DNA from: an uncultured virus (IMG/VR IMGVR_UViG_3300045609_000049)
Taxonomy: Duplodnaviria > Heunggongvirae > Uroviricota > Caudoviricetes
Direction: 5' to 3' (one strand)
DNA length: 64,000 nucleotides
Virus record (IMG/VR): IMGVR_UViG_3300045609_000049
A model generated the notes under the pieces. That model saw only the letters and a list, made by a program, of their open reading frames with translations, had not been told where the DNA came from and searched no databases. Position 1 is the first letter of the stretch; each line of letters opens with the position of its first letter. The position numbers and the translations under genes were made by a program. Positions 5,769-46,533 of the stretch are shown here, in pieces.

Positions 5769-5783
5769 AAAGGATGGAAGATT

Positions 5784-22002: not shown

Positions 22003-25000
22003 TCTGGCAAGAGTGTTTGTGAGCAGAGCATAGTTGGCCACGTATCTAGATATTCAGATAGATTTCAGTTGGTAGGAGTCGACTGTAAGCGTATTTAATT
22101 CAATGCGCATTTCTATTGAACTCTATTGCTCAGAGGTGTGATTTAGATTTTATTCTAAATTGCTAACGGTATCAGCAAAATAAGCATAGTTGGTTGGGTG
22201 TTACAACAGTACCAACTTTAATAATGACGAAACAGCTGACTAAGAGAATCTAAGCCTAGAAATAGGTCAGTTAAAGACAATACCGTGCTAAGTCCGAAAG
22301 GAAAAGTGTATCGACTATCTCCGTGAGGAGAGTACATCCGAGAATGAGCTACGGGTGGAAGTGGTAGAAGTATAATTTTAAAGGAGTTTTTAATAATGAT
22401 TATTTGTAAAATTTGTGGAAAGGAATGTTCTGATAGAGGAATAGGCGCACATGTAAAAATCAGCATAGTATGATGCCTGTCCAATATTATGATACATATT
22501 ATGGTAAACATAAATGTCCAGTGTGTGGAAAAGATACAAATTTCAGAAGTATTCATCAAGGATATTTAGAATTTTGTAGCATTAAATGTGCAGATTTAGA
22601 ACGAAGTATATTTAAAACTAGAAATCCACAGAAAGACCCACAAATAAAGCAAAAAACACAGGAAACATGCATTAAAAGATATGGAGTATCTAATCCATAT
22701 CAAATAGAACATGTAAAAACTAAATGTATTGCAAATAATCATACAAAAGATGCTTTAGATAAACGTACAAAATCATTATATAAAAATCTTGAAAACTTTT
22801 GTAAAGCCAATAATTGTATTACTATGGGAGAAGCATTAAAAATAAATCCATGCATAGGTTGGTGGAGTGAAGTAGATTTTATTATCTATAAGAAATGGCG
22901 TAAATGTATATCTAAAGACGATTTAGACATTATTAAAAACTATAAGCCAAATAATAACCGAAGTAAAAATGAGATCAAATTATATAATCTTATTTGCGAT
23001 AATTTTAATGGTATAGTTGAACATTCAACTAGATCTGTAATAAATCCATTAGAATTAGACATCTACATTCCAGATCTTAAATTAGCAATTGAATATAATG
23101 GTTGTTATTATCATTCTATAGAAGCTGGAACACTTAAAGATTATCATCTTGAAAAATCATTAAGATGTAGAGATTTAGGAATTAGACTTATTCATATCTA
23201 TGACTTTGAAAATTTTGATACTCAATGTAAGTTAGTGTTAAAATTACTTCAGGGTACAGATGAATTTTGTAAAATAGACTTCAATAAAAATAATCTTATA
23301 GAAGTCGTTCCTAAACCTGAATTAATTTTTAGTGATTTGAATCTTCATGTTTATGGCGCTGGAAAATTATACAAGATATAGTCAGTTTATTATGGAAACA
23401 TAATAAGATAACGGTAGAATTTAATTTACTTAGAGGCGTAGATTTTGCGCATCTTTATTGAACCTTATTACTCAAGGGTGTCTTAGAAATAAGGCTAACG
23501 GTAGAAGTTGAATAAGACTGCTATATGAAATGTTACAACAAGATATATAGCCATAGACCAAAGACGAAGTCGCTTCGTAAGAGAACCTACGGTCCAGAAA
23601 TGGATAGCAGGCAATACCGTGCTAAGCTTATACTGTTTAAAGGTGCAATAAAACTTGATATAATAGTATTAGAAAGTGTATCGACTATTCCCGAGAGAGG
23701 GAAGTACAGCCGAGGATGAGTTACGGTTGGAAGTAGTAGAGGTATATAAAATGATTAAATGTAAAATATGTAATGCAGAATATAATACATATAAACAATT
23801 ATCTTGGCATGTCAAATATCATAATCTGACAAATCAACAATATTATGATATGTATATGAAACAGCCTAATGAGGGTTATTGTTTAATGTGTAGAAAAGTT
23901 ACTGCATTTATAAGTCTAAATTTAGGGTATAGACAACATTGTAATAAACAATGTACTAAGTTAGACAAACAAGTTCAAGTAAAAAGATTAAACACTAATA
24001 TTGATAGATATGGATATGCAACATCATTAAGTTCTAAAGAAACTCAAGATAAAATAAAACAAACATTTATTAGAAAATATGGAGTATCAAATCCTTATGC
24101 TGCAGAATCAGTAAAGGAAAAGATAAAACAAAATAATTTAGAACAGTACGGAGTAGAAAATCCACAACAACGTGATGATGTTAAACAGAAAACGGCAACA
24201 ACTAATTTAGAATTATATGGAAATACATGTGTAATGCAAAGTGAATCTGTAAAAAGTAAAGTAAGACAAACTATGCAAGAACGATATGGTTCTGATAACA
24301 TATTTGGTTCTGAATATGGAAAACAGAAAATTAAAGAAACTAACTTAGAACGTTATGGAGTTGAGAATCCTCAGCAGAATCATGATATTCACGTAAAAAC
24401 ACTGAAACATTATAAGTATAATTCATTAAATTTTGACAGTTCTTGGGAATTAGCAGTTTATATTTATTGTATAGACCATAATATATCAATTATTAGAGAA
24501 TCAGTACGATTCAAATATATCAATTCAAATGGTGTTGAAAGCTATTATTTTCCAGATTTTGAAATTGAAGGTCATATAGTTGAAATTAAAGGTGGACAAT
24601 TTTTAGACAAGAACAATAAGTTAAAAGATAAAGCAAAACAAAAATGTATAGATGAACATAATGTTGAATTATGGATTAAGTCAGATGTTCAGAAATATAT
24701 TCAGTATTGTGAAGAAAAGTTTGGTAGTACTAAATGGTATAATCAATTTAGATAATCATTTTATATATAAGATATAGTCAGTTCATTATTGAAAAATAGT
24801 GAGTAAATGAAAAGGTGTAAAAGGAGTAGCTTTAGATGTACCTACGGCCGCAGACGCCGTGGCAAATTTCCAACAGATTATGATGGAGAGATTTAAGTTC
24901 ATGGAGCAGATGCAGGTTGATTTTATAAAATTATTGGCTTGCGCGTAGAGTGATCTGCGTGAGAAATTAACTATTTAATTGCTGGGATAATATTCTTTTA

Positions 25001-28000
25001 ATGAATATGACTTTAACAACAATCAAGCTATAACATAATTGGAAACAATAAGTGTGAATTGCAACGAAAGTAGAAAAAATTGATTGTTTGACCTATGGTT
25101 AAATCCTAAGGGTTAGTAGAATGAGAAATCAGCAGCTAAGTACCCTAACGTTATACTGAGATCATCAGTTAGCTAAGTCGAGGGTAAAAGTTCAACGACT
25201 AGAGCTCACAGAGGCTACATCATAAAAATAAGAGTGGAAATCTCGAATATTTGTAGCAATACTCGTAGGGCCTATTATGGTGGGTGAGAATCCCTTAAAT
25301 CGAAAAGGTAGTCCCTTATTTATAAGGTGAAGATATAGTCTAAGGAGAGATCAGAATGAATGAAACAATATGTAGAATATGTAATCAACCAATTTCAAAT
25401 AGGTTGTTTAAGAAACATTTAGAACAACATAATATTAGTCAACAACCATATTATGATAGGTACTTTGGAAAAGGTGTATGTGAAGTATGTGGTAAACCTA
25501 CCAGCTTTAAGGATATTTTCAAAGGTTATAATAATTATTGTTCTAGATCATGCTTAAATAAATCTACTATACATTCTGATTCAGTTAAAACTACTAAAAC
25601 TATTAGGTATGGAACTCCTACATACAATAATCCAAGTAAGACAAGTGAATCTTTATTAAATAGAACAGATGATGAAAAACAAAAATCTATTCTTAAAAGA
25701 AAATCTACTTGTCAAGAAAAGTATGGAGATGAAACATATAATAATAGTAAAAAGTATAAAGAAACTTGTCTTAAGGTATATGGAACAGTGATTCCATTTG
25801 CTGCAGAATCAGTAAAGCAGAAAATTTCAGACAAATATTATGCTAAATCTGCTGAAGAAAAGAAAGCGATTTATACAAAGAGACAAGCAACATTTGATAG
25901 TAAAACTGAAGAAGAAATGAAAATTATTGGTCAGAAACATAGAGATGCATATATGTTGAAGTCAGATAAAGAAAAAGCTGAGATTAAACATAAAAGCTAT
26001 CTGACTAAAAAGAAGAATCATTCATTTAAGGTATCAAAGACTGAAGATTTATGTTATGTACAACTTTTAAGTATTTATCCAGATGCTAAACATGGATATA
26101 AGTCAACTAAATATCCTTTTGTATGTGATTTATACATTCCATCTAAAGATATTTATATTGAGCTTAACTTTCATTGGACACATGGATTACATCCATACAA
26201 TAAGAAAAATGATAGTAAAAAGTTAGCAGAGTGGATAGAAAAATCTAAAACATCTAAGTATTTTGAAAATGCTATTTATACTTGGACAGTTAGAGATACA
26301 CACAAGTTAAAAGTAGCTAAACATAATAAAGTACAATTATTTGTATTTTATACTAAATCTGAGTTTGATACTTGGTTATCTATGCAATAATGTTTATAAA
26401 ATCAAAGACAAGGAAGTAAATTATTTTACCACAATGGGCAAAACTGTTCAGTTTGATGAAATCTTTGAGCTTATGGTAGACCTTGACGAAAATGATAGAA
26501 ACTATAGTAAAATGAAGGCCATCTATCCTGAAGGACGTCAGCCTATTATTACGACTATTCAAAAGATTTATGATGGTATGATGGAAGGTAAGTGGGATGG
26601 TAGAAATCCTCAGTTACCTGAAGTAAAAGGTTACAACTCATATATCGACAAGAATAGTATTAGAATGACGAAGGGCATTTATACTCCTAAAGTATTACTC
26701 TTCCTTGCAGATGAGTTGAATGAGTTGATGACATCAGACGATTATAAGTCAGTTGATATTGTTAAACAAGCACTGGGATCTATAGCTAGACTCGGTAGAG
26801 CTTATTTGTTGTAGGCTCGGTATATAAAATTATAAGATATAAGGTAAATAAAATGTTAAATGAATTGCAATGTAAGATTTGTGGATATAAAGCATCTACA
26901 AAACAAGGTTTTAATAGTCATTTATCACATAGACATCATATAAAATCAAAAGATTATTATGATAATTATCTTAAACAAGATGGTGAAGGAATATGTCATT
27001 GTGGTAATCCAACAAAATTTAGAAATATGTGGTATGGCTATAACAGACATTGTTGTACTAGATGTATTCCATTAGATCCAGACGTACAAAATAAAATGAA
27101 AATTACTTGTCAAGAAAAATATGGCACAGATTATGCTTGGCAAGCAGAACAAACAAAAGCTAAGATTAAACAAACTACTAGAAATCATTATGGAGTAGAT
27201 TGTTATTTACACACAGATGCATGTAGAAAAATTACATCTGAAGTTACTAGTTCTGATAAAGTTAAAGATAAGATTAAACAATCTAATTTAAAACGTTATG
27301 GAGTAGAATGTTCATTTCAAGCCTCAGTAGTTAAAGATAAGATTAAGTGTACTAAATTAGATAGATATGGCCATGAAACTTATAATAACTTAGATAAAGC
27401 AAAAGAAACTAGTAGAGCTAAATATGGAGTAGATAATCCTGCTCAATCTATAAAAGTACAAAATAAAATGAAAGCTACATGTTTGGAACGTTATGGTGTT
27501 GATAATATCTGGAAAGATAGAGATTCTAGATTAAAAGCTAAAAAGAAGTCACAAAAATCTATGTGTAAACATGGAAATAGATCTTCCTTAGAAGCTTTAT
27601 TAGAGCAATATTTTATTGATAATCATATTAAATATGAACCAGAATATAATAAAGATATTCGTTATCCATATTTTTGTGATTTTTATTTACCAGATTTTGA
27701 TTTATTTATTGAAATAAATGGATATTACACACACTGTAATCATTGGTTTGATTCAAATAATTCAGAAGATGTTAATAAGTTAAACGAACTTATTGAAAAG
27801 TCTAAAGTTCATTCAATGTACAAAACTTGTATAAGAGTTTGGACTCAATCTGATGTAGAGAAACGAAATTGTGCCAAAAATAATAAACTTAATTATGTTG
27901 TATTATGGTCTAAACAAGATATTCTTGATTGGATTAATTCTGGATTTGAAATTAGACATGATTATTAAATTTATCTTATAATAATATATATAAAAATTAA

Positions 28001-31000
28001 CCTATTGAATTGCTGGAACAGTACATTAGTACGTACCTAAAGTTCTTTCAGCTACAACGTAGAGATGAAATATGCTCAAGCGTGATATGCGGAGAAATCA
28101 GAAAAAATGAAAGAAATGGCCTATGGTTAAATCCTAAGGGTTATAAGAATGGAAAATCAGCAGCTAAGCCTCGAATAGAGGAAAGTTCAGAGACTATCGA
28201 AAGCATAGTATAAGAGAAATACTTATATGAAGAAGTGAGTAGAGTAGCTTTATAAGCGAAGTGGTAGGCATTTCATATTGGCTAATGCAATATGGGATGA
28301 AGATATAGTCCAACTTTTATATGAAAGTATAAAATATAGTGGCAGCAGTACATCTTGCTCTTGCTTAACTAAAAATACGGAGTTTTATTAATGAAATGTT
28401 TAATTTGTGAACATGAAAGTCCAATATATTTGTAGAAATTAACGGTTATTGGATGTATAATACACATTGGTTTGATGAAAATTCTATAGAAGATTTAAAC
28501 GCATTAAAAGAGTGGAAAAAGAAAGCTAAAACTTCTACAAGAATGCAATCAGCTATAAATATTTGGACAAAAATTGATATAGAAAAACGTAATTGTGCCA
28601 AAAGTAATAAGTTAAATTACGTAGTTCTATGGACAATAGAAGATATTCAGAATTGGATAGATTCTAATTTCAAAATTAGACATGATTATTAAAAAACATA
28701 ATATTTAGACAGGCACTATATACAAGTAATTGTGTGTAGTTATCCCATTGAATTGCTGGAAACTCTTTAGAGCTTCTTAAACTACAGCATAGTACCTTAA
28801 ATGGTACAGGTGCGAATGTTTGAAAATTAAGAAGATTAGACAATCAGCAGCTAAGGCCGAAAGGTAAAGTTCAACGACTATCGAAAGTATAATTATAGAG
28901 AAATACTATAATGAATAAATGAGTAGAGTAGCAGAAATGCGAAGTGGTGGGCATCTTATAAAGGTTAATACAATATAAGATGAAGATATAGTCTAATAGT
29001 ACAATTGTACTAGTGTCAGAGAGCAAGTGGTTCTACTATTTCAACAGACTTGAAGAACAATATTCAGATGAGTGTTCTTTTAGGTGGATTTGATGATGGT
29101 GCATCACAGTTAATGTTTGAAAAGGATTAACAATGAATAGTCCCTATGTACAGAAATGTGCATAGCAAACCAATTTAATTGCTGGAAATTTAATTCCTAG
29201 AGAATTACGTAGAAATACGCTAAAGCCTTCTCGCCACAGCATAAGCATGAAATATAGTTAAGTGCGACGGTAGTGAAAACAGAAAGAAGTAAGAAGGATT
29301 GTATAAGGTTAAATCCTAAGTACAACAAAATGGATAACCAGCAGCCAAGTTCCGAATAGGAAAAGGTTCAACGACTATCGAAAGCTACAGGTCTTGAAAC
29401 ACAGATGAAAATAAGATGACTATTTAATTATATAGTCATACGAAGTGAGTAGAGTAGTGCCGAGTGGTGAGCATCTATATGAGATTAGTATAGAGTAAGT
29501 CTATTAAAACGAAATGGTTGGTATTATTTTAGATTAAAAATATAATAGAAAGGAGACTTACATGAAATGTTTAGAATGTGGACAAGATATTAAAAATAAT
29601 ATTGCATTAGGTTTACATGTTAAAAAACATAATATGACTAGTAAAGAGTATTATGATAAATATATGCGAAAATCTAATGAAGGCATTTGTCCTACTTGTA
29701 AGAAAGAAACTCCTTGGCAATCGTTTGATAGAGGGTATCTTAAACATTGTTCATATAAATGTACTCAAAATGATCCTAAAGTAATTAAAAAACGTGAAGA
29801 TCATTTTATGAGTAAATATGGTGTTAAGAATCCATATCAAGCAGAAGAAGTAAAACAAAAAATAAAAGAAAGTAATTTAGCTAATTATAGTGTTGAATAT
29901 AATTTACAGAGAAAAGAAACTATTCAACAGGCAAAACAAACTAAATTAGAACGTTATGGAGATCAAAATTATAATAATACAACAAAAGCTAAGACAACTT
30001 GTTTAGATAAATATGGAGTAGATTCATATTCAAAAACTGATAAATTTAAGTCTATTATTAGAGAACAAGTAGATTTTTATGCAATTGCTAAAAAAGGATT
30101 AGTAACACATAATAGTAAAGTAGATAAACAATGTAAGTTGGGATATATAACTATACAAGATGCTTTTATTAAGTACGGTCAAAGCTGGTATAAAAATAAG
30201 ATAGTTCCAATTTTATATAAATATCATACTGGATTTATTTCTCTAGCTGATGAACAGATTATAAAATTTTATTATGAAAATAATAATGGTCATAGTAGTC
30301 AAGAAGAAAATAAGCTATTAGAATTATTGCATAAGTATTATTCTGGAACTATAATTCATGGTGAACATAAAATAATTGCACCTTTAGAATTAGACTGTTA
30401 TATTCCTGAGTTAAACATAGCTATAGAATATAATGGTATTTATTGGCATTCTGCTAAATTTAAGAATAATGACTATCATTATAATAAATCTATGTCTTGT
30501 TTTAATAAAGGCATTAGACTTATTCACTTTTATGAATTTGAAGACTGGACATATATAGAACAGTTTATTAAAGATTTATTTAATAACACTGAGCAAATTA
30601 CACATAATTTTGATAAATTTTCTCCATTACAATTTGATTATTCTACAATTGAATTTTCAGGTCCGCAATTGTTAGAATGTAATATATTTGGATCTGGAAC
30701 ATTTAATCTAAAATAATAATGATATAGTCTACTCTCATGTGAAAGCATGAGGCGAAAGCATAATAGAGTAACGAACTATTATAAATGTAAGGATTTCTCA
30801 GTTGGCTAAACCTCAGATCAAGGGAAGAGGTTTTATCGGATTAACAATCTAGTCCGGGCGTACAGTGATGTGCGTAAAAATTATCCTATTTAATTGCTGG
30901 AAAACTGATTCCAAGAGAATCACGCAGAAATGTGCCTAAGAGCTCTTCAAACTACAGCATAATACCTGTAAAATGGTATAAGTGTGACAGTTACGAAAGT

Positions 31001-32647
31001 AGAAAAAATTGAAGAGATTGTATATGGTTAAATCCTAAGTACAATAAAATGGGTAATCTTAGCAGCGAAGACCGAAAGGTAACGTTCAACGACTATCGAA
31101 AGCTACAGGTCTTGAAACACAGATGAAAATAAGGTCATAATGACACGAAGTGAGTAGAGTAGTGCCAAGTGGTTAGCGTCTATATGAGATTAGTATAGAG
31201 TAAGTCTATTAAAACGAAATGGTAGGTATCATAACAATTTTCTGGTAAAAATAAAATGGAAGGCGAATAATAATTGAAATGTTTAATATTCAGCCTGACT
31301 TAATACTCAAGTGTTTTCTCTACGTGTGTAGAGGTTATTCCCTAAAGCTCACAATCCACAATGTAAGCATGAAGTTTTCTCTACATATGTAGAGGTTATT
31401 CTAATTTTGGTCCTATACCAGAAGGTCCAGAAATTATTTGTACTAAACCATATAGTATATATGGTGCAGGAAAATTGTTATGATAATGATATAGTCTCCT
31501 CTCATATGAAAGTATGAGGCGAAGGCATAATAGACTAACGAACTATTATAAAGATAAGGCAGGAAATGAAATTATCGAAACTCAAACTTATTACACACAA
31601 CCAGAGAATTAACAATCCAGTGGTTCTCTATAAACCTATTTAATTGCTGGAACAGTATCAAATAATGATACGGACCTAAAGCTCACAATCCACAACGTAA
31701 GGATGAAATAAGCCTAAGCGTGACGGGCGCGAAAGCAGAAAAAAGAACGTTATGTTCAAGTGAGATGGCCTAAGGACGATTTGGTGAGTCCTAAGGGTTG
31801 TAAGAATGGGAAATCAGCAGCCAAGCCTCGAATAGAGGACGGTTCAACGACTATCAAAAGCTACAGGCCTTGTAATACAGGATGAAAATAAGATGACTAT
31901 TATAATAGTTATACGAAGTGAGTAGAGTAGCGCCAGAGTGGTTAGTATCTAAGTGAGATTAGCTTAGAGTAAATCTATTAAAGCGAAATGGTAGGTGCTA
32001 TAGAAATATAGTGAAGATATAGTCTAGATTCTTATGAAAGTAAGGAAGGTTATGTATTTAACCAAAAAACGGACTGGGAGTTTGATGAAGACCAGAAATT
32101 GTCTTATAATAACCCTGTATTTATTGAGTTATTAAAGAGACGCGGTAAAAGCTTTGACGAGCTAAATACTGGTTGGGTACCTCAGCATAAGATTGGTGAG
32201 GAAGCAGAAGAACCAGATGAAGAAATTGAAGAAAAAGAGGATGAGTTTGAAGAAGATGAAGATGTAAATGAAGAAGATCTTTTTACATCTGCACCTAAAA
32301 TGGAAGCTCCACCTAAGAAAGAAGAAGATTCTAATGAAGTAAGCTTTAAGTTCGGTAGAAAATCTAAACCAGAAGAACCTGTTGCACCAGCATCAGTAGA
32401 ATCACCAGATTTAGGATTAAGTGGACTAGAAGCCATGTTTGGACCATCTACTTCAACTATTCCCGAACCACCTACACCATCTCAACCTAATTTTGGACAA
32501 CCGTCTAATAGAGATCGAATTGGTGCGGCTTTGAATGAAGTTCAAGGTGGAAAACCTAAAATTAAGTTAAATATTGACAAGACTTCTGCAGATCAACCGA
32601 TGAAGCCTACAATTAAACTCAATATTAAGCCTAAGGATCAACAGTAA
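21880..32647 (+). CDS. FtsK/SpoIIIE-like ATPase 1, C-half with N-terminal intein C-piece; exons 21880-22092, 23414-23439, 24810-24917, 26385-26802, 28342-28365, 29014-29127, 30793-30841, 31560-31609, 32072-32647
   Basis: Exons sum to 1578 nt (525 aa plus stop): IFHN-SGKS, VDCKRVEF, Walker B LLFLADELNELM, RLGRAAAVHLALACQRAS, KGRG, acidic/Pro-rich tail. Confidence 0.85.
22093..23413 (+). mobile_element. Group I intron with endonuclease ORF
   Basis: P1 gcgt/gcgc; gctaacggt...ataccgtgctaag, tcgacta, gatatagtc; terminal G. Confidence 0.82.
22396..23381 (+). pseudogene. Intron-encoded zinc-finger/PD-(D/E)XK endonuclease with 1-nt frameshift near 22455
   Basis: MIICKICGK start with RBS is out of frame with the 22470-23381 ORF (ELDIYIPDLKLAIEYNG); one extra A in gtaaaaatcag restores HVKNQH. 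Confidence 0.7.
23440..24809 (+). mobile_element. Group I intron with endonuclease ORF
   Basis: P1 gcgt/gcgc; same core family as the 22093 intron; terminal G; frame restored. Confidence 0.82.
23751..24755 (+). CDS. Intron-encoded endonuclease (zinc finger, YGVxNP repeats, PD-(D/E)XK)
   Basis: FDSSWE...YFPDF...VEIKG. Confidence 0.8.
   Translation: MIKCKICNAEYNTYKQLSWHVKYHNLTNQQYYDMYMKQPNEGYCLMCRKVTAFISLNLGYRQHCNKQCTKLDKQVQVKRLNTNIDRYGYATSLSSKETQDKIKQTFIRKYGVSNPYAAESVKEKIKQNNLEQYGVENPQQRDDVKQKTATTNLELYGNTCVMQSESVKSKVRQTMQERYGSDNIFGSEYGKQKIKETNLERYGVENPQQNHDIHVKTLKHYKYNSLNFDSSWELAVYIYCIDHNISIIRESVRFKYINSNGVESYYFPDFEIEGHIVEIKGGQFLDKNNKLKDKAKQKCIDEHNVELWIKSDVQKYIQYCEEKFGSTKWYNQFR
24918..26384 (+). 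mobile_element. Group I intron with endonuclease ORF after P7
   Basis: P1 gcaggt/gcttgc; P10 ttttataaaattattg pairs with exon caataatgtttataaaa; standard core motifs. Confidence 0.82.
25356..26390 (+). CDS. Intron-encoded endonuclease
   Basis: Zinc fingers; YPFVCDLYIP...IELNFHWTHG. Confidence 0.8.
   Translation: MNETICRICNQPISNRLFKKHLEQHNISQQPYYDRYFGKGVCEVCGKPTSFKDIFKGYNNYCSRSCLNKSTIHSDSVKTTKTIRYGTPTYNNPSKTSESLLNRTDDEKQKSILKRKSTCQEKYGDETYNNSKKYKETCLKVYGTVIPFAAESVKQKISDKYYAKSAEEKKAIYTKRQATFDSKTEEEMKIIGQKHRDAYMLKSDKEKAEIKHKSYLTKKKNHSFKVSKTEDLCYVQLLSIYPDAKHGYKSTKYPFVCDLYIPSKDIYIELNFHWTHGLHPYNKKNDSKKLAEWIEKSKTSKYFENAIYTWTVRDTHKLKVAKHNKVQLFVFYTKSEFDTWLSMQ
26803..28341 (+). mobile_element. Group I intron with endonuclease ORF ahead of the core
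   Basis: P1 gagct/ggctc; P10 tatttgttgt pairs with gcagcagta; core at about 28000-28320. Confidence 0.82.
26853..27968 (+). CDS. Intron-encoded endonuclease
   Basis: Zinc fingers, YGV repeats, YPYFCDFYLP...IEINGYYTH. Confidence 0.8.
   Translation: MLNELQCKICGYKASTKQGFNSHLSHRHHIKSKDYYDNYLKQDGEGICHCGNPTKFRNMWYGYNRHCCTRCIPLDPDVQNKMKITCQEKYGTDYAWQAEQTKAKIKQTTRNHYGVDCYLHTDACRKITSEVTSSDKVKDKIKQSNLKRYGVECSFQASVVKDKIKCTKLDRYGHETYNNLDKAKETSRAKYGVDNPAQSIKVQNKMKATCLERYGVDNIWKDRDSRLKAKKKSQKSMCKHGNRSSLEALLEQYFIDNHIKYEPEYNKDIRYPYFCDFYLPDFDLFIEINGYYTHCNHWFDSNNSEDVNKLNELIEKSKVHSMYKTCIRVWTQSDVEKRNCAKNNKLNYVVLWSKQDILDWINSGFEIRHDY
28366..29013 (+). mobile_element. Group I intron with deleted endonuclease remnant in the P1 loop
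   Basis: Guide gacaggca near 28708; core motifs; terminal G29013; frame restored (LALA-CQR). Confidence 0.8.
28391..28692 (+). pseudogene. Internally deleted endonuclease
   Basis: MKCLICEH start joined out of frame to FVEINGYW...KIRHDY, which is paralogous to the 26853 ORF C-terminus. Confidence 0.75.
29128..30792 (+). mobile_element. Group I intron with endonuclease ORF
   Basis: P1 ggat/gtcc; core motifs; terminal G. Confidence 0.8.
29562..30716 (+). CDS. Intron-encoded endonuclease
   Basis: MKCLECG zinc finger; ELDCYIPELNIAIEYNGIYWH. Confidence 0.82.
   Translation: MKCLECGQDIKNNIALGLHVKKHNMTSKEYYDKYMRKSNEGICPTCKKETPWQSFDRGYLKHCSYKCTQNDPKVIKKREDHFMSKYGVKNPYQAEEVKQKIKESNLANYSVEYNLQRKETIQQAKQTKLERYGDQNYNNTTKAKTTCLDKYGVDSYSKTDKFKSIIREQVDFYAIAKKGLVTHNSKVDKQCKLGYITIQDAFIKYGQSWYKNKIVPILYKYHTGFISLADEQIIKFYYENNNGHSSQEENKLLELLHKYYSGTIIHGEHKIIAPLELDCYIPELNIAIEYNGIYWHSAKFKNNDYHYNKSMSCFNKGIRLIHFYEFEDWTYIEQFIKDLFNNTEQITHNFDKFSPLQFDYSTIEFSGPQLLECNIFGSGTFNLK
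30842..31559 (+). mobile_element. Group I intron carrying a mini CRISPR array in place of its endonuclease
   Basis: P1 cggat/gtccg; core motifs; terminal G; frame restored (FIG-SGNE). Confidence 0.8.
31313..31402 (+). CRISPR. Mini CRISPR array C (2 repeats, 1 spacer) inside an intron
   Basis: Repeats 31313-31341 and 31374-31402; 32-nt spacer. Confidence 0.85.
31610..32071 (+). mobile_element. Group I intron, no ORF
   Basis: P1 gagaat/gttctc; P10 ccagt/actgg; core motifs; terminal G. Confidence 0.85.
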
Positions 32648-38425: not shown

Positions 38426-38588
38426 AGATAATGCATCCTATTAGTTATGCAAAGAAAAATAGAATAGACATAGTGGCAGATTGTACCATTTATGGTATCC
38501 TACTTTGAAATCATTGGGCTTTAGCGATAGCACGGATAAAAGAGTTTGGATAAACTTAAGTAAATAGAAGCATATAAGGAGGTTAAAT

Positions 38589-38873
38589 ATGCAAGAAGCA
38601 ACTAGTAACAGAGAATTTGCAGAAAGACTTGTACAATTAGCAGAAGACTTTGATACATATGACTTTTTAGATAATATCGAAGACGATGAAATGCACGAAC
38701 AAACTACTAGAAGCATTGAGGCAGACGTAGTCAATCATAATGATACATGGATGCGAGATTGACTTAATGATGTTAAAGATGAACTTAAGTCCAAGATTGA
38801 TAAGGAAGATCCAGACTGTCTTGGACATTATGTTGTAGAATGTGATACTTTATTACGGTATCTCGATAAATAA
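38589..38873 (+). pseudogene. Small gene with in-frame TGA at 38760
   Basis: RBS and ATG; frame continues past TGA to TAA just before the next RBS. Confidence 0.5.
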
Positions 38874-38885
38874 GGAGGATAAATT

Positions 38886-39179
38886 ATGTTATTAGTCATA
38901 AATACGGAGACAATGTATATCGCTGACATAAAGGACGCAAGTGTATCAACTATTAACGAAATATTTGAAGCAGTTGGTCATCCTGAATACTATTTTGACA
39001 AAATGCTTCAACTTGATTCTGTTGAATTAGACCAAGAATATGATATATACGATTATGATGAAATTACAGTACCCGATGTAGTAAGTCGAATTGATATTGA
39101 TAATGTTGAACCAATTGGAACATTTAGAGTTGTTAGCCGCAAATATGTTATAGTCGATGGTACAGTTGATTTAGATTAA
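38886..39179 (+). CDS. Hypothetical protein
   Basis: ORF with RBS. Confidence 0.6.
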   Translation: MLLVINTETMYIADIKDASVSTINEIFEAVGHPEYYFDKMLQLDSVELDQEYDIYDYDEITVPDVVSRIDIDNVEPIGTFRVVSRKYVIVDGTVDLD

Positions 39180-39204
39180 AAATATTTAGAAAGGAACTTA
39201 CATA

Positions 39205-39585
39205 ATGAAGAAAACTATTGCAGATGTAAAGGTAGGAGATTTAGTTCTTGGTACCGATGGTAAATTCCATAAAGTTATTGAAAAGACTACAGCTAAACTC
39301 TCCTACCACATGTATGAAATAGAATTTAGCAATGGTAAAGTCAAATGTTCTAATGTACATCAATGGAATGTATTTATCAAAAACAAGATGTATATGATTG
39401 ACGCTGAAGGTATTTATCAAGAATTTGATTGGTACAAGGGTCGACATGTTGGAACTAACGATGGACCAACGATTGTTAATATTAGAAAAATTGAACCTGA
39501 AATTGTGCAGTGTATAACTACTGACGCACCTGACCATCAGTTTGCTATTTATACTGAAGGTGGCGCTGTTTGTAACGATAACTAA
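39205..39585 (+). CDS. Stand-alone intein middle piece (class-3-like; blocks B and F, no block A, no HN end)
   Basis: TIADVKVGDLVLGTDG, MYEIEFSNG, HQW, IVQCITTDAPDHQF. Confidence 0.8.
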   Translation: MKKTIADVKVGDLVLGTDGKFHKVIEKTTAKLSYHMYEIEFSNGKVKCSNVHQWNVFIKNKMYMIDAEGIYQEFDWYKGRHVGTNDGPTIVNIRKIEPEIVQCITTDAPDHQFAIYTEGGAVCNDN

Positions 39586-39979
39586 TATTTGAAAAAGGAT
39601 TGGGTAGAACGATGAAAAATGAAAATTTTAAGCGTTTATATAAACAAGTATTTGACGTAAACGGAAATATTACTGCATGCGGACGTGAAAAATGCATAGA
39701 ACTTATGCTAGCGGCAAATAAAATTAAAACTGGTAACTATGGTGATACGAATTCTGGACGATTAAATATTGAGAACGTTAAAGAACTCTATGAAGAATTA
39801 TGATAAGGACAAAAGCTTAGCCCTTATTATAACTGCAAATAATATTGGAGACGAGAAATATGGAGAGCTTGATTTTGGTCGTTTAGATATTGATGCGGTA
39901 AAGAGAATATATACCAAACTATTTACAACTTATTGTAAACGTGTTATAATAAATTTATAAAGAATATGGAGGCTTTGAC

Positions 39980-40507
39980 ATGAGAATCAGAACTGAATGT
40001 AAATTTAAGACATCACTTACTACTGAAAATAGTAGTATTGATGGTTGGGATGAATATATTGAGTATCTTAATGATATTATCCACAAGCGACTTGGCGGTA
40101 AATACGTAAAAGCTATTTACGAGTCTGATGAGTTTGGTACGCTTGCGATTACTGTAGGAATCTACACATTTATCGATGATACAGACGGTAAAGCCAGTAT
40201 TCTTGTCTGGATTAAACCTAAGAATGAAGAGCTTGAATATAATGATGATGATTGGTATGATTACATGACCGCATCCAATGGATTTGTAGAATTTATCGAA
40301 TCTAAGGTCGCAGAGTTTGTTGAACTTGTAAATACTACTATCAAGGATATTCAATTTCCTAAGAATGAGAATCTAGTCTTTAAGAATGAACAATTCTATA
40401 TGGAAATTAGTCCTATTTATCCAAATTATATACCTGAATATGTTCCATTCCAAATTGATACATATATCAATAGGGATGACATCATTGATAACTTGCTGCT
40501 ATGTTAA
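39980..40507 (+). CDS. Hypothetical protein
   Basis: Promoter, RBS, 175-aa ORF. Confidence 0.65.
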   Translation: MRIRTECKFKTSLTTENSSIDGWDEYIEYLNDIIHKRLGGKYVKAIYESDEFGTLAITVGIYTFIDDTDGKASILVWIKPKNEELEYNDDDWYDYMTASNGFVEFIESKVAEFVELVNTTIKDIQFPKNENLVFKNEQFYMEISPIYPNYIPEYVPFQIDTYINRDDIIDNLLLC

Positions 40508-40603
40508 TGGCGTAAAATAATAATATTTGAAATCTTGTAAATGATTTGAATTATTACTGCAAGATTAGCGATATTTATGTTGATACAATGGAGGAAACGA
40601 AAA

Positions 40604-41098
40604 ATGATTGAGATTAGATCTTCAATTTTTGAAACTAACAGTTCTAGTGTTCATGTATTAGTAATTCCAAAAGATACTTCTATCAGTATACCACACAAAG
40701 TATTTCTTCGGGGTGGAGAATATGGATGGAGCTTTGGTACTGAATATGATACATTAAACTATTTTTACCAGGCTCGTGTAGATCATGGCAGAGAAGAGCT
40801 TGAGAAGTTCTTTGAATATCTTAAAAGCAAGGGTGTAGAAGAAATTCATGCCCCAGAAATTAACTGGATAAAGACCGACTGGGGTGGTCAAGAGTATGAG
40901 TATGCCGAAAATAGTGATGGTTGTATCGATCATTATGAAGGAATACCTCTAGATGAACTTTTCGCTAATGAAAATCTTCTTGATAGATTCTTATTTGGAG
41001 GCTCATTTGTTGAAACTGGTAATGATAATGTTGAAGGATGTCCAGATGAACGTAATTATGACCCTAATATTTATGATACAATTGAGAAAGGAAATTAA
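40604..41098 (+). CDS. Hypothetical protein (FETNSSS family), paralog of 46534-47004
   Basis: MIxxRxxxFETNSSSxxVLxIP shared. Confidence 0.7.
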   Translation: MIEIRSSIFETNSSSVHVLVIPKDTSISIPHKVFLRGGEYGWSFGTEYDTLNYFYQARVDHGREELEKFFEYLKSKGVEEIHAPEINWIKTDWGGQEYEYAENSDGCIDHYEGIPLDELFANENLLDRFLFGGSFVETGNDNVEGCPDERNYDPNIYDTIEKGN

Positions 41099-41100
41099 GT

Positions 41101-41433
41101 ATGGAAAGAATCGATTGGCATGAAGCAAAAGAATACTTAAGAGAATTCAACAGGCAACATGGTTACAAATGCAGTAATAGTGGTTGTAGTGAAACTGCAC
41201 ACATTGTTGTTGTTTTTACTGCAGATAGTTTTGATGAAGAATATTCAGAAGAATCTAGAAGCTATATTGTGTCAAGCAATAACAAAGCTTTCCTTGATGG
41301 AATGATTGGTTATTCAATCTATGCATCTTGTCTTGATGGAACTGATCCATGCGTAAGACTTGAGGCGTATATGCGCGATGAGTATGGTGGAGAAGGCTGT
41401 TGGAAAGTAGAGTACTGTTACATTAAAGACTAA
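41101..41433 (+). CDS. Hypothetical protein
   Basis: 110-aa ORF following the upstream gene. Confidence 0.65.
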   Translation: MERIDWHEAKEYLREFNRQHGYKCSNSGCSETAHIVVVFTADSFDEEYSEESRSYIVSSNNKAFLDGMIGYSIYASCLDGTDPCVRLEAYMRDEYGGEGCWKVEYCYIKD

Positions 41434-41497
41434 GGTGTCGATTATATGCAAAAGTATGTGCTCTTTTACATGATTAGGAATATTTAGATAAAGTTTA

Positions 41498-41908
41498 ATG
41501 GGGAGGTATTTAGAGATGGCAACAAATATTGAAGAAATGAAAGAATGGGCTGAGAAAGTTCCTATGGAAGATCTTTTCTCAGAGTTAAGACGAATTACTA
41601 GTTTATCTGATCTTAAATTTACTTATAGAGTAGTTGAGCGAAATAATTCTGTTCGTATTTTATTTGAATCACAAGATCTTGTAGATAAAGTTGGTTTTCT
41701 TAAACTTATGTTTAAGAAAATTGTTATTTCACAGTTTAATTCAGAAGTAGCATATAAAGCTTATGAAGGTGAAGAGCCCGCATACCATTTCTGGGGAACT
41801 GCAGACTTTTCATACGCACATCCATCCGGTGGTTCTAATGGTTGTACATTCTTAACTTTCTGGTATGATGATCGTAAAGGTTGGACTTTTGATCAGAGAG
41901 GATGGTGA
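41498..41908 (+). CDS. Hypothetical protein
   Basis: ORF with RBS (likely start 41516). Confidence 0.65.
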   Translation: MGRYLEMATNIEEMKEWAEKVPMEDLFSELRRITSLSDLKFTYRVVERNNSVRILFESQDLVDKVGFLKLMFKKIVISQFNSEVAYKAYEGEEPAYHFWGTADFSYAHPSGGSNGCTFLTFWYDDRKGWTFDQRGW

Positions 41909-42043
41909 TGAAGTGACTTCGCACTCAGCTAAAGACTAAGCACTTTTCTTGGCTGTTATATATAAAAGCTTCAGAAGAAACTTTATATGTACTTACTAAT
42001 CATGAAGAAACTAGACTTATGCATTGAGACTATTTAATAATAC

Positions 42044-42103
42044 AGCAGGTAGCTTTGGTCTAGCTAACCAAAGAGATAATGATGCCTTAATCATTAAGCT
42101 GCT
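42044..42103 (+). ncRNA. Candidate structured RNA, copy 1
   Basis: Three stems with compensatory changes relative to the copy at 43910-43968. Confidence 0.55.
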
Positions 42104-42132
42104 TTATTTTATTTCTATTAAGGAGAAATATC

Positions 42133-43008
42133 ATGAAATGTCGTATATGTGGAAAAGAAATGGAAAAAGGTCATAGTTGGAAACATCATTTATCGTCCCA
42201 ACAATATTATGATCAGTATATTAAAACTGAAACTGATGGTATATGTAAAGTATGTAAAAGTCCTACTTCTTGGCATAAACAAAAATTTTGTTATGACGAG
42301 TATTGTAAAGACCATCAACCTAAAAAGATTCATAGTTTATACAATAATAGAGATAAAGCTATTGCCACATGTAAAGAAAAATTTGATGGTAAATTAAATT
42401 CTGGTGCATGGAATACTAGAAATCAAAGATTAGATCAATTTGAAAAGGATCATAATTGTACAAGAACTAAAAAGTTAATTCAGCAATATGGTCAAGGTTG
42501 GTTAGCCTTAAACTTGCCTAGAATATATTGTGGTAAACAAAATACGTTTATTAGTAATGACTATTTACATCAAATTGTAGAATATTCTACACATAAACAT
42601 GTAAATCTAAAAGGTAAAGCTGAGTCATATATACTTGAACATTTACAATATGATGGACAAATTCAGCCTAACAATCGTAAAATCATTCATCCAAAAGAAT
42701 TAGATATTTATATTCCTGATCTAAAGCTTGCTATAGAATTTAATGGTACTTATTGGCATGCAGAAGAACGTCAAAATAATATTTATATTCATAGAGAAAA
42801 ATCTATATTATGTCATGAAAAAGGAATTAGACTAATTCATATATTTGAATTTGAAGATTTAGACGAACAAATTGACAAAATAAATCAGTTAATTTTAGGA
42901 AATGACTTATTTGAACAAACATTTACTAAGAATAGTCTGTTAGACGTTCCTAAGTTAGATCCTATTATTATATATAAAGACGAAAAGAGCACATTATATA
43001 GTGCTTAA
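42133..43008 (+). CDS. Free-standing zinc-finger/PD-(D/E)XK endonuclease
   Basis: MKCRICG; ELDIYIPDLKLAIEFNGTYWH; RLIHIFEFE. Confidence 0.82.
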   Translation: MKCRICGKEMEKGHSWKHHLSSQQYYDQYIKTETDGICKVCKSPTSWHKQKFCYDEYCKDHQPKKIHSLYNNRDKAIATCKEKFDGKLNSGAWNTRNQRLDQFEKDHNCTRTKKLIQQYGQGWLALNLPRIYCGKQNTFISNDYLHQIVEYSTHKHVNLKGKAESYILEHLQYDGQIQPNNRKIIHPKELDIYIPDLKLAIEFNGTYWHAEERQNNIYIHREKSILCHEKGIRLIHIFEFEDLDEQIDKINQLILGNDLFEQTFTKNSLLDVPKLDPIIIYKDEKSTLYSA

Positions 43009-43058
43009 TGACTTCTAATATAGAAAATCTATGTCATGGAAAGGAGTTGATGATTACA

Positions 43059-43904
43059 ATGGAGACAGTTAAAAGAGGACTCATTTCGCACAACAGCGTT
43101 ACTTTGAGGAATGTCATATTCCATTGTATTTAGGCGAAAGCCTAAAATAAATCGAACATAATAATAAAATATCGGTCGCGTTGGTAGACATAAAGCAAAC
43201 GGAGTGCGTTTTTAAAGGATGAAGCTCCCGCGTATGGTGACATGCGTGAAAAATTCCCTATTGAATTGCTGGAACAGTATTCTTATAATGAATACGAACC
43301 TAATGCCAAATTAGCTACAACGTAAGAGAAATACTAAGCGTGATATGCAGCGAAAGCAGAAAAAATAATTTGGATGACCTATGGTTAAATCCTAAGGGTT
43401 AGTAGAATGGAAAATCAGCCGCCAAGTCTTGGTAACAGAGACAGGTTCAACGACTATCGAAAGCTATAGGACCTGAAATACGGTATGAAAATAAGGCATT
43501 TGCACGAAGTAAGTAGAGTAGAGCCAATATGGTTAGCATTTAGATGAGATTAGTCTAATATAAGTCTATTAAATCGAAGTGGTAGGGTTCTCTAATTAGA
43601 GAATATGATATAGTCTAATAATGTTTATCCTTTTAAGGGTATGAATGGTGTAGTAGCAGTTGCAAACTCGGTTCAAGAAGCAGCTGAGGTTTTGAGAATT
43701 GGTAGAGCCGTAATGTATTCTCGTAACAAGAAGCTTCAACAAATTGGATTAAATGATATGGCTTCCTATCAGCCGACTTTGTGGACTGGTAAGATTTGGA
43801 TTACTGGTCGTGAGTTTGATAAGGATGAGATGATCAAAGTTCGTGTTGCTGGCGAGGAAAAAGAAATGACAGCACTCGAAATTTACGAGTATTTGTACAA
43901 CTAA
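43059..43904 (+). CDS. FtsK-like ATPase 2, middle fragment with a 12-aa intein C-piece; segments 43059-43130, 43154-43205, 43624-43904
   Basis: METVKRGLISHN-SVTLRNVIFHCI/EHNNKISVALVDIKQTE/FYPFKGMNGVVAVA aligns without gaps to ATPase 1 SVCEQSIVGHV...VDCKRVEFNLLRGVKGVKGVA. Confidence 0.7.
43206..43623 (+). mobile_element. Group I intron, no ORF
   Basis: P1 ggagt/gctcc; P10 taaaggatgaa pairs with tttatcctttt; core motifs; terminal G. Confidence 0.85.
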
Positions 43905-43909
43905 TATAT

Positions 43910-43968
43910 TGTGGGTAGCGTTAGTCTAGCTAACTAACGAGATAATGTTGCTTACTCAACAAGCCACA
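43910..43968 (+). ncRNA. Candidate structured RNA, copy 2
   Basis: Same unpaired sequences as 42044-42103 with different but paired stems. Confidence 0.55.
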
Positions 43969-43998
43969 TTATATTTTTTCTTAGTAGGGAGAAATATT

Positions 43999-45972
43999 AT
44001 GGTTAAATGTTTAGAATGTGGTCGAGAATTTAATAGTAATAATGGTTTATCTCGACATATAGGCGTTCATATGAATCAAGAAGAATATTTTGATAAATAC
44101 TTACGAACATCCGAACAAGAAGGAAAATGTGTTATATGTGGAAAACCTACTAGATTTAGAAATTTTGTATATTCTAATTGCTGTAGCCAGTCCTGTAGAA
44201 ATACGTGGATAAATCAAAATAGGTCTGAGGAAGAAAGACAAGAATTGTCTAAAAAGATACGTAATGCCCATAGAACTGAAGACGTTTTATCTAAGACTAA
44301 ACAAACTAATATAGAAAGATATGGAGTTCTTTATACAACTCAAAATTCAGATGTTCAAGAGAAACGCAGACAAACTTGTCAAGAAAAATATGGTACAGAC
44401 TATTCATTTCAAGCTGAATGTGTAAAAGAAAAGATTCAGCAGTCTATACACGAACATTATGGTGAGAACGGTCTTGGAGCAGCAGAAGTTAGACATAAAA
44501 CTATTGCTACATGCCAAGAACGATATGGCACCAATAATGGCGGTGCTTCACAACAAGCACAAGAGAAAATTAAAAAAACTACTTTAGAACATTATGGGGT
44601 AGAATCGTCTTTTCAAGCCAATGAAGTAAAAGATAAAATTAAGAAAACTTGTCAAGAAAAATATAGTGTAGATTATGCTAGTCAAGCAGAAGTAGTTAAA
44701 ACAAAAATTGTTAAAACAACATTAGATAGATATGGAGTTAGATGTCAATATCAACGTTCAGACTTGCGAGCAAAACTATCCGATCCAGGCGTTATTGCTA
44801 AAAAATATGAAACTAAACGTAAGAATGGAACGTTTAACACCTCTAAACCAGAAGACAGATGCTATGAATTACTTCAATCAATCTTTCCAAATGCTAAAAG
44901 ACCATATAAGTCTGAACAATATCCATATCTATGTGATTTTTATGTACCAGAACTAGATTTATACATAGAGTGTCATTTTTTCTGGACACATGGTGGACAC
45001 TTTTTCGATAAAAATAATCCTGAAGATCTGGCTATTGTAGAAGAATGGAAATCTAAACACGCAAATTTTTATGATAATGCTATTCGAAATTGGGCTGTTA
45101 GAGACTTAGAAAAGCTTGAATGTGCTCATAGAAATAATCTTAAATATTTAGTATGTTGGTCAGAAGAAGAGTTTATGTCTATATTTGATAGAGACTTTTC
45201 TGAACATGATGAGCTTTCAGATAAAATTAAGAATGTAACTCAAGTGACTAAACTTGCTAATTGGAATGAGTACTTTAAGCGTGAAATTGAAATGCTTGAT
45301 AATCCATTAGTATTAGGTGAGTTATTTATCAATAGATATAAGTATTTAGGCAAGTTACCACATCAACTGTCTAATCTTGCCTTATTGAATGGACTTAGTA
45401 TTTCTGGTAAACTTCGAAAGTACAGTACATTTGATAATACTGGCATGATTCAGTTTATTGAAAAATATAAACCTTCTACTATATTTGACCCTTGTGCCGG
45501 TTGGGGCGAAAGACTTCTAACTTGTCATGTCAATGGAATTAAATATATAGGCCACGATATAAATCAAACTGTTGTAGAAGGTCAAAATGAACTAATTAAA
45601 AAATACAATATAGACGCAAAAGTCACTTGTATGGATTCTATTATGGATATGAGTCATTATGATTGTTTATTCACTTGTCCACCTTATTGGAATACAGAGG
45701 TTTATACTAGTATAGGCGTAGAAAATCTTGAGTATGACAAGTTTTTGCAGTGGTGGAAAAGTATTATTGAAAACTCATCTAGTAATTTTGTAGCCTATCA
45801 AATCAATCAAAAATATAAAGACGACATGAACCAACAAATTTTAGATTTAGGATATAGATTTACAGAAGAAATCATTTTGCCACAAAAGAGCTCTCATTTC
45901 ACTAGAAAAGCTGGAAATCAAAAACGAGAATTTGAGAGTATTCAAGTGTTTAGTAAACTAACTCAAGCTTAA
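43999..45972 (+). CDS. Zinc-finger/PD-(D/E)XK endonuclease fused to an amino-DNA methyltransferase-like domain
   Basis: YPYLCDFYVP...IECHFFWTHG, then FDPCAGWG (motif I) and FTCPPYW (motif IV). Confidence 0.78.
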   Translation: MVKCLECGREFNSNNGLSRHIGVHMNQEEYFDKYLRTSEQEGKCVICGKPTRFRNFVYSNCCSQSCRNTWINQNRSEEERQELSKKIRNAHRTEDVLSKTKQTNIERYGVLYTTQNSDVQEKRRQTCQEKYGTDYSFQAECVKEKIQQSIHEHYGENGLGAAEVRHKTIATCQERYGTNNGGASQQAQEKIKKTTLEHYGVESSFQANEVKDKIKKTCQEKYSVDYASQAEVVKTKIVKTTLDRYGVRCQYQRSDLRAKLSDPGVIAKKYETKRKNGTFNTSKPEDRCYELLQSIFPNAKRPYKSEQYPYLCDFYVPELDLYIECHFFWTHGGHFFDKNNPEDLAIVEEWKSKHANFYDNAIRNWAVRDLEKLECAHRNNLKYLVCWSEEEFMSIFDRDFSEHDELSDKIKNVTQVTKLANWNEYFKREIEMLDNPLVLGELFINRYKYLGKLPHQLSNLALLNGLSISGKLRKYSTFDNTGMIQFIEKYKPSTIFDPCAGWGERLLTCHVNGIKYIGHDINQTVVEGQNELIKKYNIDAKVTCMDSIMDMSHYDCLFTCPPYWNTEVYTSIGVENLEYDKFLQWWKSIIENSSSNFVAYQINQKYKDDMNQQILDLGYRFTEEIILPQKSSHFTRKAGNQKREFESIQVFSKLTQA

Positions 45973-46007
45973 ACGATACTACAATCGTTTATTTATAAAA
46001 TGTCAGT

Positions 46008-46044
46008 AAGAAAACCCACTACATTTAGGTGATGGGTGGTTCAC
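46008..46044 (+). mobile_element. Collapsed IS200/IS605-type end hairpin
   Basis: aagaaaacccactacatttaggtgatgggtggttcac looks like fused left and right ends of the 15397 element. Confidence 0.55.
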
Positions 46045-46533
46045 TAGAATGGAGAAGAACATATGTCATTATTAGAAACAATTGAAAACCTAAAACAAAC
46101 TAGAAAATATTCTATTGATCAAATCTATGATATTGCTACTAAAATTGAGGAAGAATTGGGACCTGCAGAAATGTGGAATACTTTAGGACCTGCATTTACT
46201 ACAGATGAATTAATAGAAAATTTAGAGTATATTGCTAAGGAACACGATTTATAAAGAACATATTAATTAAAAGCTATTTAATATTATAAGGATGAATGTG
46301 AACAATGACTAATTTAGTAATAGGTTAGTCATTTCTTTTGAAGGGAGTAAAATATGAAAACAGCTGAAATATACAAGAAACATATTGCTAATCATGGAAA
46401 TGACTATGAATATTATGTAGTTATTTTTTATAATGGAATACCTGAAGATGTAAGTAGGTATTGTCATACGTATGAAGAAGCTTTAGATTGGGCAAGAGCT
46501 CATAATGCAAAAGTAGAGGAGGAGGAAAAATAA

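Follow-up and report, generated by a model that had tools for sequence, protein, structure and literature searches.

A 64,000-nucleotide (nt) stretch of the uncultured virus IMGVR_UViG_3300045609_000049 (IMG/VR; Caudoviricetes; one strand), referred to here as the window, probably holds parts of two natural inteins, each split into three pieces, that interrupt a single FtsK-like ATPase gene of a huge phage. This reading comes from comparing the sequence with related viral genomes. Two of the pieces lie in the window: open reading frame (ORF) 39205-39585, a stand-alone Hint core, and, further downstream, a peptide of 12 amino acids (aa), METVKRGLISHN, that opens a segment of the FtsK-like gene. 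We use M-b for middle pieces of the ORF 39205-39585 type, M-a for the middle piece of the intein in the P-loop, and P1-P4 for the four genes that carry the exteins; in motifs, ↓ marks a splice junction. The nearest relatives of the window are IMG/VR viral contigs of 290-467 kb, rated 100% complete and in most cases with direct terminal repeats. The window is collinear with about 21.3-86 kb of one genome, G001 (blastn), and is taken to belong to a huge phage. The genomes compared whole, by local searches, were G001, G002, G004 and G005, which have a stand-alone M-b, and G003, which has a contiguous gene.

Two inteins in pieces and their pairing

ORF 39205-39585 is a real Hint core that runs from after block A to after block F and has the class 3 Trp and Cys. 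The first-pass annotation, made from the letters of the window, had described it as a Hint domain of this extent without His-Asn, and profile, structural model and 30 relatives all agree. A weak match to Pfam Hom_end_hint (expectation value (E) 5e-4, 20.5 bits, cut-off 32.1) places residues 2-49 on profile positions 15-59 and thus opens past block A. A word-index search gave 74 relatives of 69-137 aa, each predicted as a separate small protein. Thirty aligned relatives start with MKK (MQK or MIK in two) and end in DHQFAIYT plus a variable tail; His-Asn is absent from all 30 ends, and blocks A and G lie outside the polypeptide in all 30, on separate genes in related genomes. Residues H52, W54 and C103 are invariant in these 30. 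H52, in the block B motif C48-S-x-x-H52, matches the block B His of 6rix, a class 3 DnaB1 intein, W54 aligns to the class 3 DnaB1 Trp (block B position 12, N3:12), and C103, block F position 4 (C2:4), is the Cys of a VQC aligned to the VRC of 6rix and 6bs8. With the profile of the 30 relatives, E values for 6rix, 6riy and 6bs8 fell between 1e-8 and 1e-6; query positions 5-54 matched chain residues 17-67, and the HQW motifs fell on each other. An AlphaFold model of M-b (predicted local distance difference test (pLDDT) 87.2) gave 11 Foldseek matches at E <= 0.001, all inteins; the best was the class 3 DnaB intein 6bs8 of Mycobacterium smegmatis (template modelling (TM) score 0.72-0.74, 27-28% identity).

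The FtsK-like gene can be read both whole and in pieces among the relatives. In G003 it is a single 780-aa ORF (L005; Pfam FtsK_SpoIIIE matches) with two cis inteins. The first reads ..GLVCGA↓PLSLDT..TYN↓TGGGKSVAIQNIIYGGI.. and the second ..TILRSN↓PLALDT..HQW..C-ITT..IYTHN↓CG.., of which P0085 has a similar contiguous form. M-b is 37% identical to the second (E 7e-22) and 29% identical to the first. No stand-alone core was found in G003. All four complete records with a stand-alone M-b have the full set of six intein pieces and four extein genes, scattered across roughly 70-140 kb in shuffled order (in G001: P1 at 5.0, M-a at 17.6, P2 at 62, P3 at 97, M-b at 55.4 and P4 at 84.8 kb). Each intein is encoded by three genes, the middle one without an extein, which departs from the definition of a two-piece split intein. 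Endonuclease genes adjoin P1, P2 and P3. The break between P2 and P3 (..YEYLYN-stop / MGW..) has no intein, and the same break is seen in the distant relative P0081. Searches of the window for P1, M-a, P3 and P4 gave no match below E 0.05; M-b and P2 were found there. Two proposals of the first-pass annotation were borne out by these genomes: fragmentation into three pieces, as a gene arrangement, and an FtsK-like N-half outside the window that ends in GxGK and 10-15 block A residues, found as TGGGK plus 11-15 aa in 4/4 complete relatives.

To assign M-b to its partners, we compared intein layouts. In related genomes the N-piece of the QNN↓C intein, PLSIDTLVEVKD (12 aa), ends the Walker B extein gene, and a C-piece ..[IV]FTHN opens the C-terminal extein gene. 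A HMMER search with the M-b profile gave 62 cluster representatives at E <= 1e-10, and P0075 was added to make 63 predicted proteins, which may be cut by contig ends; layouts were sorted by script (P0120 by eye). There were 20 stand-alone cores without blocks A and G; 18 two-piece forms with a short N-piece, in which the core is followed by ..THN↓C and a C-extein of about 120 aa; 4 two-piece forms with a short C-piece, in which an N-extein and QNN/RSN↓PL..DT precede a core without HN; 2 contiguous forms; 4 cores with a C-piece and a short tail; 3 fragments; and 12 long proteins with other inteins. In 18 relatives a core of the ORF 39205 type is joined to FTHN↓C and the C-terminal extein; in 6 its partner is QNN↓PL..DT. 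Because relatives hold contiguous and two-piece forms, the pairing of the pieces is fixed, and by this comparison the predicted partners of ORF 39205-39585 are QNN↓PLSIDTLVEVKD and ..FTHN↓C.

This pairing bears on the class of the intein. Class 3 inteins are defined by a W-C-T triplet, as set out in PMC7891396. The G5 (C1:5) residue is Thr, in FTHN↓C, in 4/4 related genomes and most fused relatives; the piece itself does not lie in the window. Since the true C-piece is FTHN↓C, the triplet W54-C103-Thr is complete. The class 3 signature proposed from the window, HQW, VQC and SHN with Ser for Thr, therefore stands in its first two members, which align to class 3 DnaB1 inteins, while SHN belongs to the other intein. 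Position 1 is Pro (QNN↓PLSIDT) in 4/4 genomes, with the boundary set against an intein-free paralogue (..KNN↓IQMS..). As it starts with Pro, the QNN↓C intein has no N-terminal nucleophile.

The other intein interrupts the P-loop at GK↓S. In 4/4 complete relatives TGGGK is followed by an N-piece of 11-15 aa and a stop (AIYIDQSVEVQSDEM, ..DEV, AIYIEQEVEVL and SLFVEQEIDVDNE). Its middle piece, M-a, is an ORF of 195-197 aa in the four relatives, running MKWKDVKVGD...CFCISTDTGRYET (also read as MKWKDVKVGD...LPCFCISTDTGRYET) to a TAA stop in 4/4, and is absent from the window. In P0089 and P0093, both among the 63 sorted proteins, M-a type sequence runs into ..YELNGLIHHN↓SVAVQNIIYGGI (extein start SVAVQNII) and ..YCVNDLTNHN↓SVTINNIISACI (extein start SVTINNII), respectively, and the stand-alone M-a stops exactly where these two proteins go on into the HN strand. 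A word-index search for longer M-a relatives found none, although this search was weak and missed the known relative P0089. The M-a model (pLDDT 83.0) gave inteins in a second structural comparison at Z 9.4, with a root-mean-square deviation of 2.1 Å over 96 residues, from intein residue 13; the 31 best rows were all Hint-fold proteins, after which Z falls to 4.6. The block F Cys of M-a is invariant (CFC-ISTD). Position 1 of the P-loop intein is Ala in three genomes and Ser in one, block B position 12 is Leu or Phe and not Trp, and the G5 residue is Ser, His or Asn.

The window 12-mer is thus the last strand of the M-a intein and not of ORF 39205-39585, because P0089 and P0093 fuse an M-a type core to a homologous strand. 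The 12-mer is translated from ATG 43059, which reads METVKRGLISHN↓SVTLRNVIFHCI and then TAG; a GGAG-type ribosome-binding site lies 7 nt before the ATG, and GGAG/GGTG-type sites at like spacing are present in the four relatives. GLISHN↓S is kept in 5/5 genomes (window, G001, G002, G004 and G005), where differences at 7 codons are all synonymous (CTC/TTG/TTA, TCG/TCC, CAC/CAT, AAC/AAT, AGC/AGT/TCA). SVTLRNVIFHCI corresponds to SVAIQNIIYGGI, which follows TGGGK in the contiguous homologue, and the +1 Ser is therefore that of the Walker A motif GKS. The first-pass annotation was thus right to see a C-piece here and to match its Ser to GKS; the part that failed was its assignment of the peptide to ORF 39205-39585. 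We consider it extremely improbable that these two are the middle and C-piece of one P-loop intein. They lie 3.5 kb apart in the same window, the N-pieces of both inteins share x-[LI]-x-I-[DE]-x-x-V-E-V, and SHN resembles the class 3 THN, yet the P-loop intein has a separate middle ORF in 4/4 relatives, P0089 and P0093 fuse that separate middle to the homologous last strand and the same extein, and cores of the ORF 39205 type are fused to FTHN↓C (18 relatives) and QNN↓PL..DT (6).

One shared Hint core serving both junctions was also considered, because tblastn with M-b gave one such core per genome, and was rejected after M-a surfaced through P0089 and P0093. A co-fold of M-b, the P-loop N-piece and the window 12-mer scored 0.02 (mark 0.32), for a mismatched trio that includes chains of <30 residues.

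Other variants occur around the P-loop of this gene family. The cis intein beside TGGGK ends in Gln (..YIYQ↓T) in G001 (5780-6238) and G002 (319189-318731) and in ..YTYN↓T in G004, G005 and G003, and the allele P0085 has no cis intein at this place. In other lineages, the metagenome proteins P0075 and P0126 bear additional inteins, split or in tandem, at a third P-loop site (..THN↓CGG↓PLALDT.. and ..THN↓CGGTGSGKS), which makes the Walker A region a repeated target.

Selection, rival explanations and a proposed mechanism

To ask whether the pieces are functional or debris, we compared them across the genomes. The ratio of non-synonymous to synonymous substitution rates (dN/dS) was 0.04-0.23 for M-b (nine pairs; a tenth was saturated) and 0.06-0.39 for M-a. 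The 12-aa N-piece keeps PLS[IL]DTLVEVK although most of its codons vary, Ser for example being TCA, AGC or AGT. The stop codons of N-pieces are TAA, TGA or TAG, and C-pieces have their own ribosome-binding sites. At the sequence level, the pieces show the pattern of selected genes and not of debris. This is in keeping with the first-pass view of a system rather than decay, as are the co-occurrence of the pieces and the existence of intermediate forms. On the rival explanation, a dead FtsK-like gene was shattered by homing endonucleases and introns, and the Hint ORF and peptides are its remnants. The dispersal of the pieces, the flanking endonuclease genes, the in-frame TAG stops and frame-breaking gaps, and the cis intein that ends in Gln in two genomes speak for such decay. 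We nevertheless think it very unlikely, as dN/dS is 0.04-0.39 over both middle pieces, the 12-aa pieces and the 13 codons after the gap in P2 change only or mostly synonymously, catalytic H, W and C do not vary among the 30 aligned relatives, and four genomes with M-b proteins that share only 64-89% identity all retain the same six pieces.

Selected pieces could also serve without splicing. Split-intein fragments bind each other tightly, and they might act as non-covalent docking modules for the FtsK-like pieces, or the Hint cores might have been recruited to cleavage or regulation. That the gene tolerates the intein-free break ..YEYLYN-stop/MGW.. speaks for such a role. However, residues that are needed only for the chemistry have been kept, namely the block F Cys, the block B His, the terminal His-Asn and the +1 Cys or Ser, and we regard a non-splicing role as unlikely.

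Several observations weigh against two three-piece inteins that splice. Arrangement, homology, conserved catalytic residues and purifying selection can be read from the genomes; splicing is what we infer from them. Because the YEYLYN/MGW break holds no intein, the two spliced chains (P1+P2 exteins and P3+P4 exteins) would stay separate proteins. The in-frame stops and short gaps in the extein genes need recoding to be read, and in G001 and G002 the last residue of the neighbouring cis intein is Gln, not Asn. The M-a model gave no match at E <= 0.001 with Foldseek alone, and Pfam did not recognise M-a as a Hint domain. Finally, the four pieces missing from the window are supplied in this reconstruction by relatives with M-b 64-86% identical.

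If the three-piece inteins do splice, a mechanism can be proposed for the QNN↓C intein. The N- and C-pieces would add the missing first and last strands to the M-b core by strand insertion, a model that follows the engineered S1 and S11 split inteins described in PMC3620165. Cys103 (block F4) would then attack the bond before Pro1 and carry the N-extein as a thioester, which the +1 Cys of the P4 C-extein would accept. Cyclisation of the Asn of the ..FTHN C-piece would free the ligated FtsK-like chain. These steps follow the class 3 pathway as presented in PMC2807308 and PMC7891396. The mature protein would consist of two chains, one joining the P1 and P2 exteins and the other the P3 and P4 exteins. 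As the middle piece would leave the reaction chemically unchanged, there is room for turnover. A bolder extension, possible if doubtful, is that stand-alone Hint cores are free protein ligases that recognise an upstream 12-aa tag and a downstream HN tag, form a thioester on the block F Cys and may turn over, and that three-piece splicing arose two or more times within a single gene and is widespread among huge phages.

Relation to known split inteins

Natural inteins are known as one-piece or two-piece elements, and AceL-TerL is a natural, atypically split intein with a short N-piece. VidaL (PDB 6vgv, rank 21 among the structure matches of M-b) likewise has a short N-piece and a large remainder, as do the 18 two-piece relatives; in the lineage of the window the large remainder is split again before the last strand. 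AceL NrdHF resembles the QNN↓C intein in being naturally split, metagenomic and of class 3 layout, with a block F Cys and no N-terminal nucleophile, but it has two pieces and an MCT triplet, whereas here there are three pieces, with W and C on the middle piece and T on the C-piece. The mycobacterial DnaB1 inteins (6bs8, 6rix, 6riy) are the best sequence and structure matches and share the HQW and V-x-C motifs. In contrast to M-b, which is without roughly the first 12 and last 10 residues, they are contiguous, splice in cis and sit in a helicase.

The same N/M/C architecture has been engineered in three-piece inteins from Ssp DnaB, Rma DnaB, Npu DnaE and gp41-1 (10.1101/2023.01.30.526203). The natural N-pieces of 11-15 aa are close to the engineered S1 site (11-12 aa), and the natural break between M and C, just before the last strand, to the S11 site (PMC3620165). 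The engineered inteins, however, are laboratory constructs made from class 1 inteins, and the natural C-pieces are 11-32 aa as against 6. According to the account in 10.1101/2023.01.30.526203, no natural intein of more than two pieces had been proved, one reason being that short pieces easily escape detection. A literature search for natural three-piece inteins, and for split inteins in huge phages, gave no natural case in the journals that it covered. The inteins described here would be the first natural ones found split into three parts.

The origin of the pieces fits the gene-breaking model. In the fractured genes of Dassa et al. 2009 (PMC2677866), as described there, phage genes are broken at inteins and free-standing endonuclease genes, including a Vsr-like family, adjoin the breaks; the model expects the parts to move to separate loci later on. 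Those genes are in two pieces, at one locus and in the original order, with an endonuclease gene between the parts; here, two breaks run through each intein, and the pieces lie scattered across roughly 70-140 kb in a changed order. Because all intermediate forms are present in this family-wide natural example, the path from a contiguous through a two-piece to a three-piece intein can be followed directly. For protein engineers, it offers natural N/M/C sets of class 3 type, with the nucleophile on an extein-free core, N tags of 11-15 aa and conserved C motifs of 6-7 aa. The family also illustrates the extent to which homing endonucleases can break up an essential-looking phage gene that is still under selection.

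Feature coordinates, the extein gene P2 and neighbouring genes

Table 1. Features of the two putative three-piece inteins in the window (with positions) and in its complete relatives (without positions).
Feature	Position	Strand	Remarks
M-b, predicted middle piece of the three-piece class 3 split intein at QNN↓C	39205..39585	+	126 aa, TAA stop; has blocks B and F, without A and G
Homing endonuclease gene just upstream of the C-piece	42133..43008	+	PHROG 3339, E 3e-28
Ribosome-binding region AAGGAGTTGATGATTACA	43041..43058	+	precedes the ATG of the C-piece
C-a, 12-aa C-piece METVKRGLISHN, putative block G of the P-loop GK↓S intein	43059..43094	+	conserved in relatives; homologous strand fused to an M-a type core in P0089 and P0093
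C-extein segment 1, SVTLRNVIFHCI: Walker A Ser and next helix of the FtsK-like ATPase	43095..43130	+	aligns to SVAIQNIIYGGI after TGGGK in L005 (G003)
Non-coding gap of 20 nt that starts with TAG, between ATT and ATC codons	43131..43150	+	in a 7 bp hairpin
C-extein segment 2, (I)EHNNKISVALVDIKQTE and first base of a Phe codon	43151..43205	+	by alignment to relatives
Group I intron, 418 nt, splits a TTT codon	43206..43623	+	exon ends in T, intron ends in G
C-extein segment 3, Walker A-Walker B region, ends YEYLYN and stop	43624..43904	+	includes 87-aa ORF 43641-43904
P1			transmembrane N-extein ..CVGS, cis intein (PLGLNT.. to YTYN or YIYQ), TGGGK, 11-15 aa N-piece, stop
M-a			stand-alone ORF
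P2			C-piece ..GLISHN, then SVTLRN.. to ..YEYLYN and stop
P3			Walker B extein MGW...DEIAEL...CTQRNDA..IIQNN, then 12-aa N-piece PLS[IL]DTLVEVK[DEN], stop
M-b homologue			stand-alone core, four relatives
P4			17-32 aa C-piece ending [IV]FTHN, then C[AG]AR.. and the C-terminal extein

The copy of P2 in the window is itself interrupted twice after the C-piece (Table 1). The hairpin of the 20-nt gap (UUUAGGC/GCCUAAA, 7 bp, z -2.0 to -3.8) includes the TAG. Gaps of 21, 18 and 26 nt, which likewise open with TAG right behind an ATT codon and precede an ATC or ATT codon, are present in relatives (L037 2399-2439, L038 1984-2021 and L040 2384-2429), and G004 has none. In the 13 codons past the gap, the window and G001 differ by 6 synonymous and 0 non-synonymous changes despite the frame shift. 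The gap is probably bypassed by a short ribosome hop similar to that in T4 gene 60. TAG as a sense codon was rejected, as TAG ends 12/50 long ORFs of the window and 23-28 of 208-306 in relatives, and TAG recoding alone cannot explain the gaps because they also contain TAA and their lengths are not multiples of three. A genome-wide scan for in-frame stops gave 474 matches, mostly in non-coding frames of conserved DNA, and was unusable. Further gaps were seen as GTA-13 nt-GTA, ATT-TAGCTGA-ATA and CGT-18 nt-AAC in G005, ATT-TAG-ATC in G001, ATT-TAG-GTC in G002 and ATT-TAGCTC-AAG in G004.

The intron at 43206-43623 scored 19.4 bits (E 0.012) against RF00028 in a narrow search, under the gathering score of 50, with conserved core stretches aligned; a broader Rfam search of 38500-46500 at E <= 1 gave nothing. 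The intron is also present in G002, and G001, G004 and G005 are without it and have a continuous frame. Closely similar copies occur in many wastewater and sludge contigs. In contigs from RNA runs (4 runs, 2 of them probably DNA), no joint was found at the intron borders or across the 20-nt gap. Segment 3 of the extein shares 39.5% identity with L005 residues 438-523 and 79-90% with the four relatives.

The window is AT-rich (GC about 0.28-0.37) with almost all long ORFs on the + strand, and has many homing-endonuclease genes (DUF7487, PHROG 3339) and one Rfam group I intron; a tRNA search found none. G001 retains just a remnant of the endonuclease gene at 42133-43008. Directly after the extein gene, in a 675-aa ORF (43945-45972), a zinc-finger/DUF7487 homing-endonuclease module is joined to a DNA methyltransferase domain.

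A second FtsK-like paralogue lies between endonuclease genes in at least seven pieces (339-1004, 21880-22089, 24811-24927, 26317-26802, 29014-29127, 30793-30840 and 31559-31609), and one of its borders is the Rfam intron at 28712-29013. Its P-loop piece opens with a 41-aa canonical intein C-part (MSTVKQVDF..GTIFHN↓SGKSV), and an in-frame TAA follows an ATT codon at 22087. A 164-aa ORF at 8431-8925 contains a Hint N-half (Hom_end_hint E 7e-9) that picks up past block A, includes block B (GGH) and ends with no block F; homologues occur in G002 and G004. This ORF may be the middle piece of the P-loop intein of this paralogue, that is, a third fragmented intein with a different break site.

Isolated stop codons were seen elsewhere. 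An otherwise conserved small ORF has an in-frame TGA at 38760 where G001 has Trp (..NDTWMRD-stop-LNDVKDELKSKI), and G001 has TAG at 30348 where G002 has Gln; these could be mutation, readthrough or local recoding. An IS200/IS605 pair (62092-63665), comprising a TnpA Y1 transposase and a TnpB/Cas12f-like ORF, sits where G001/G002 synteny would place the approach to the FTHN↓C extein gene.

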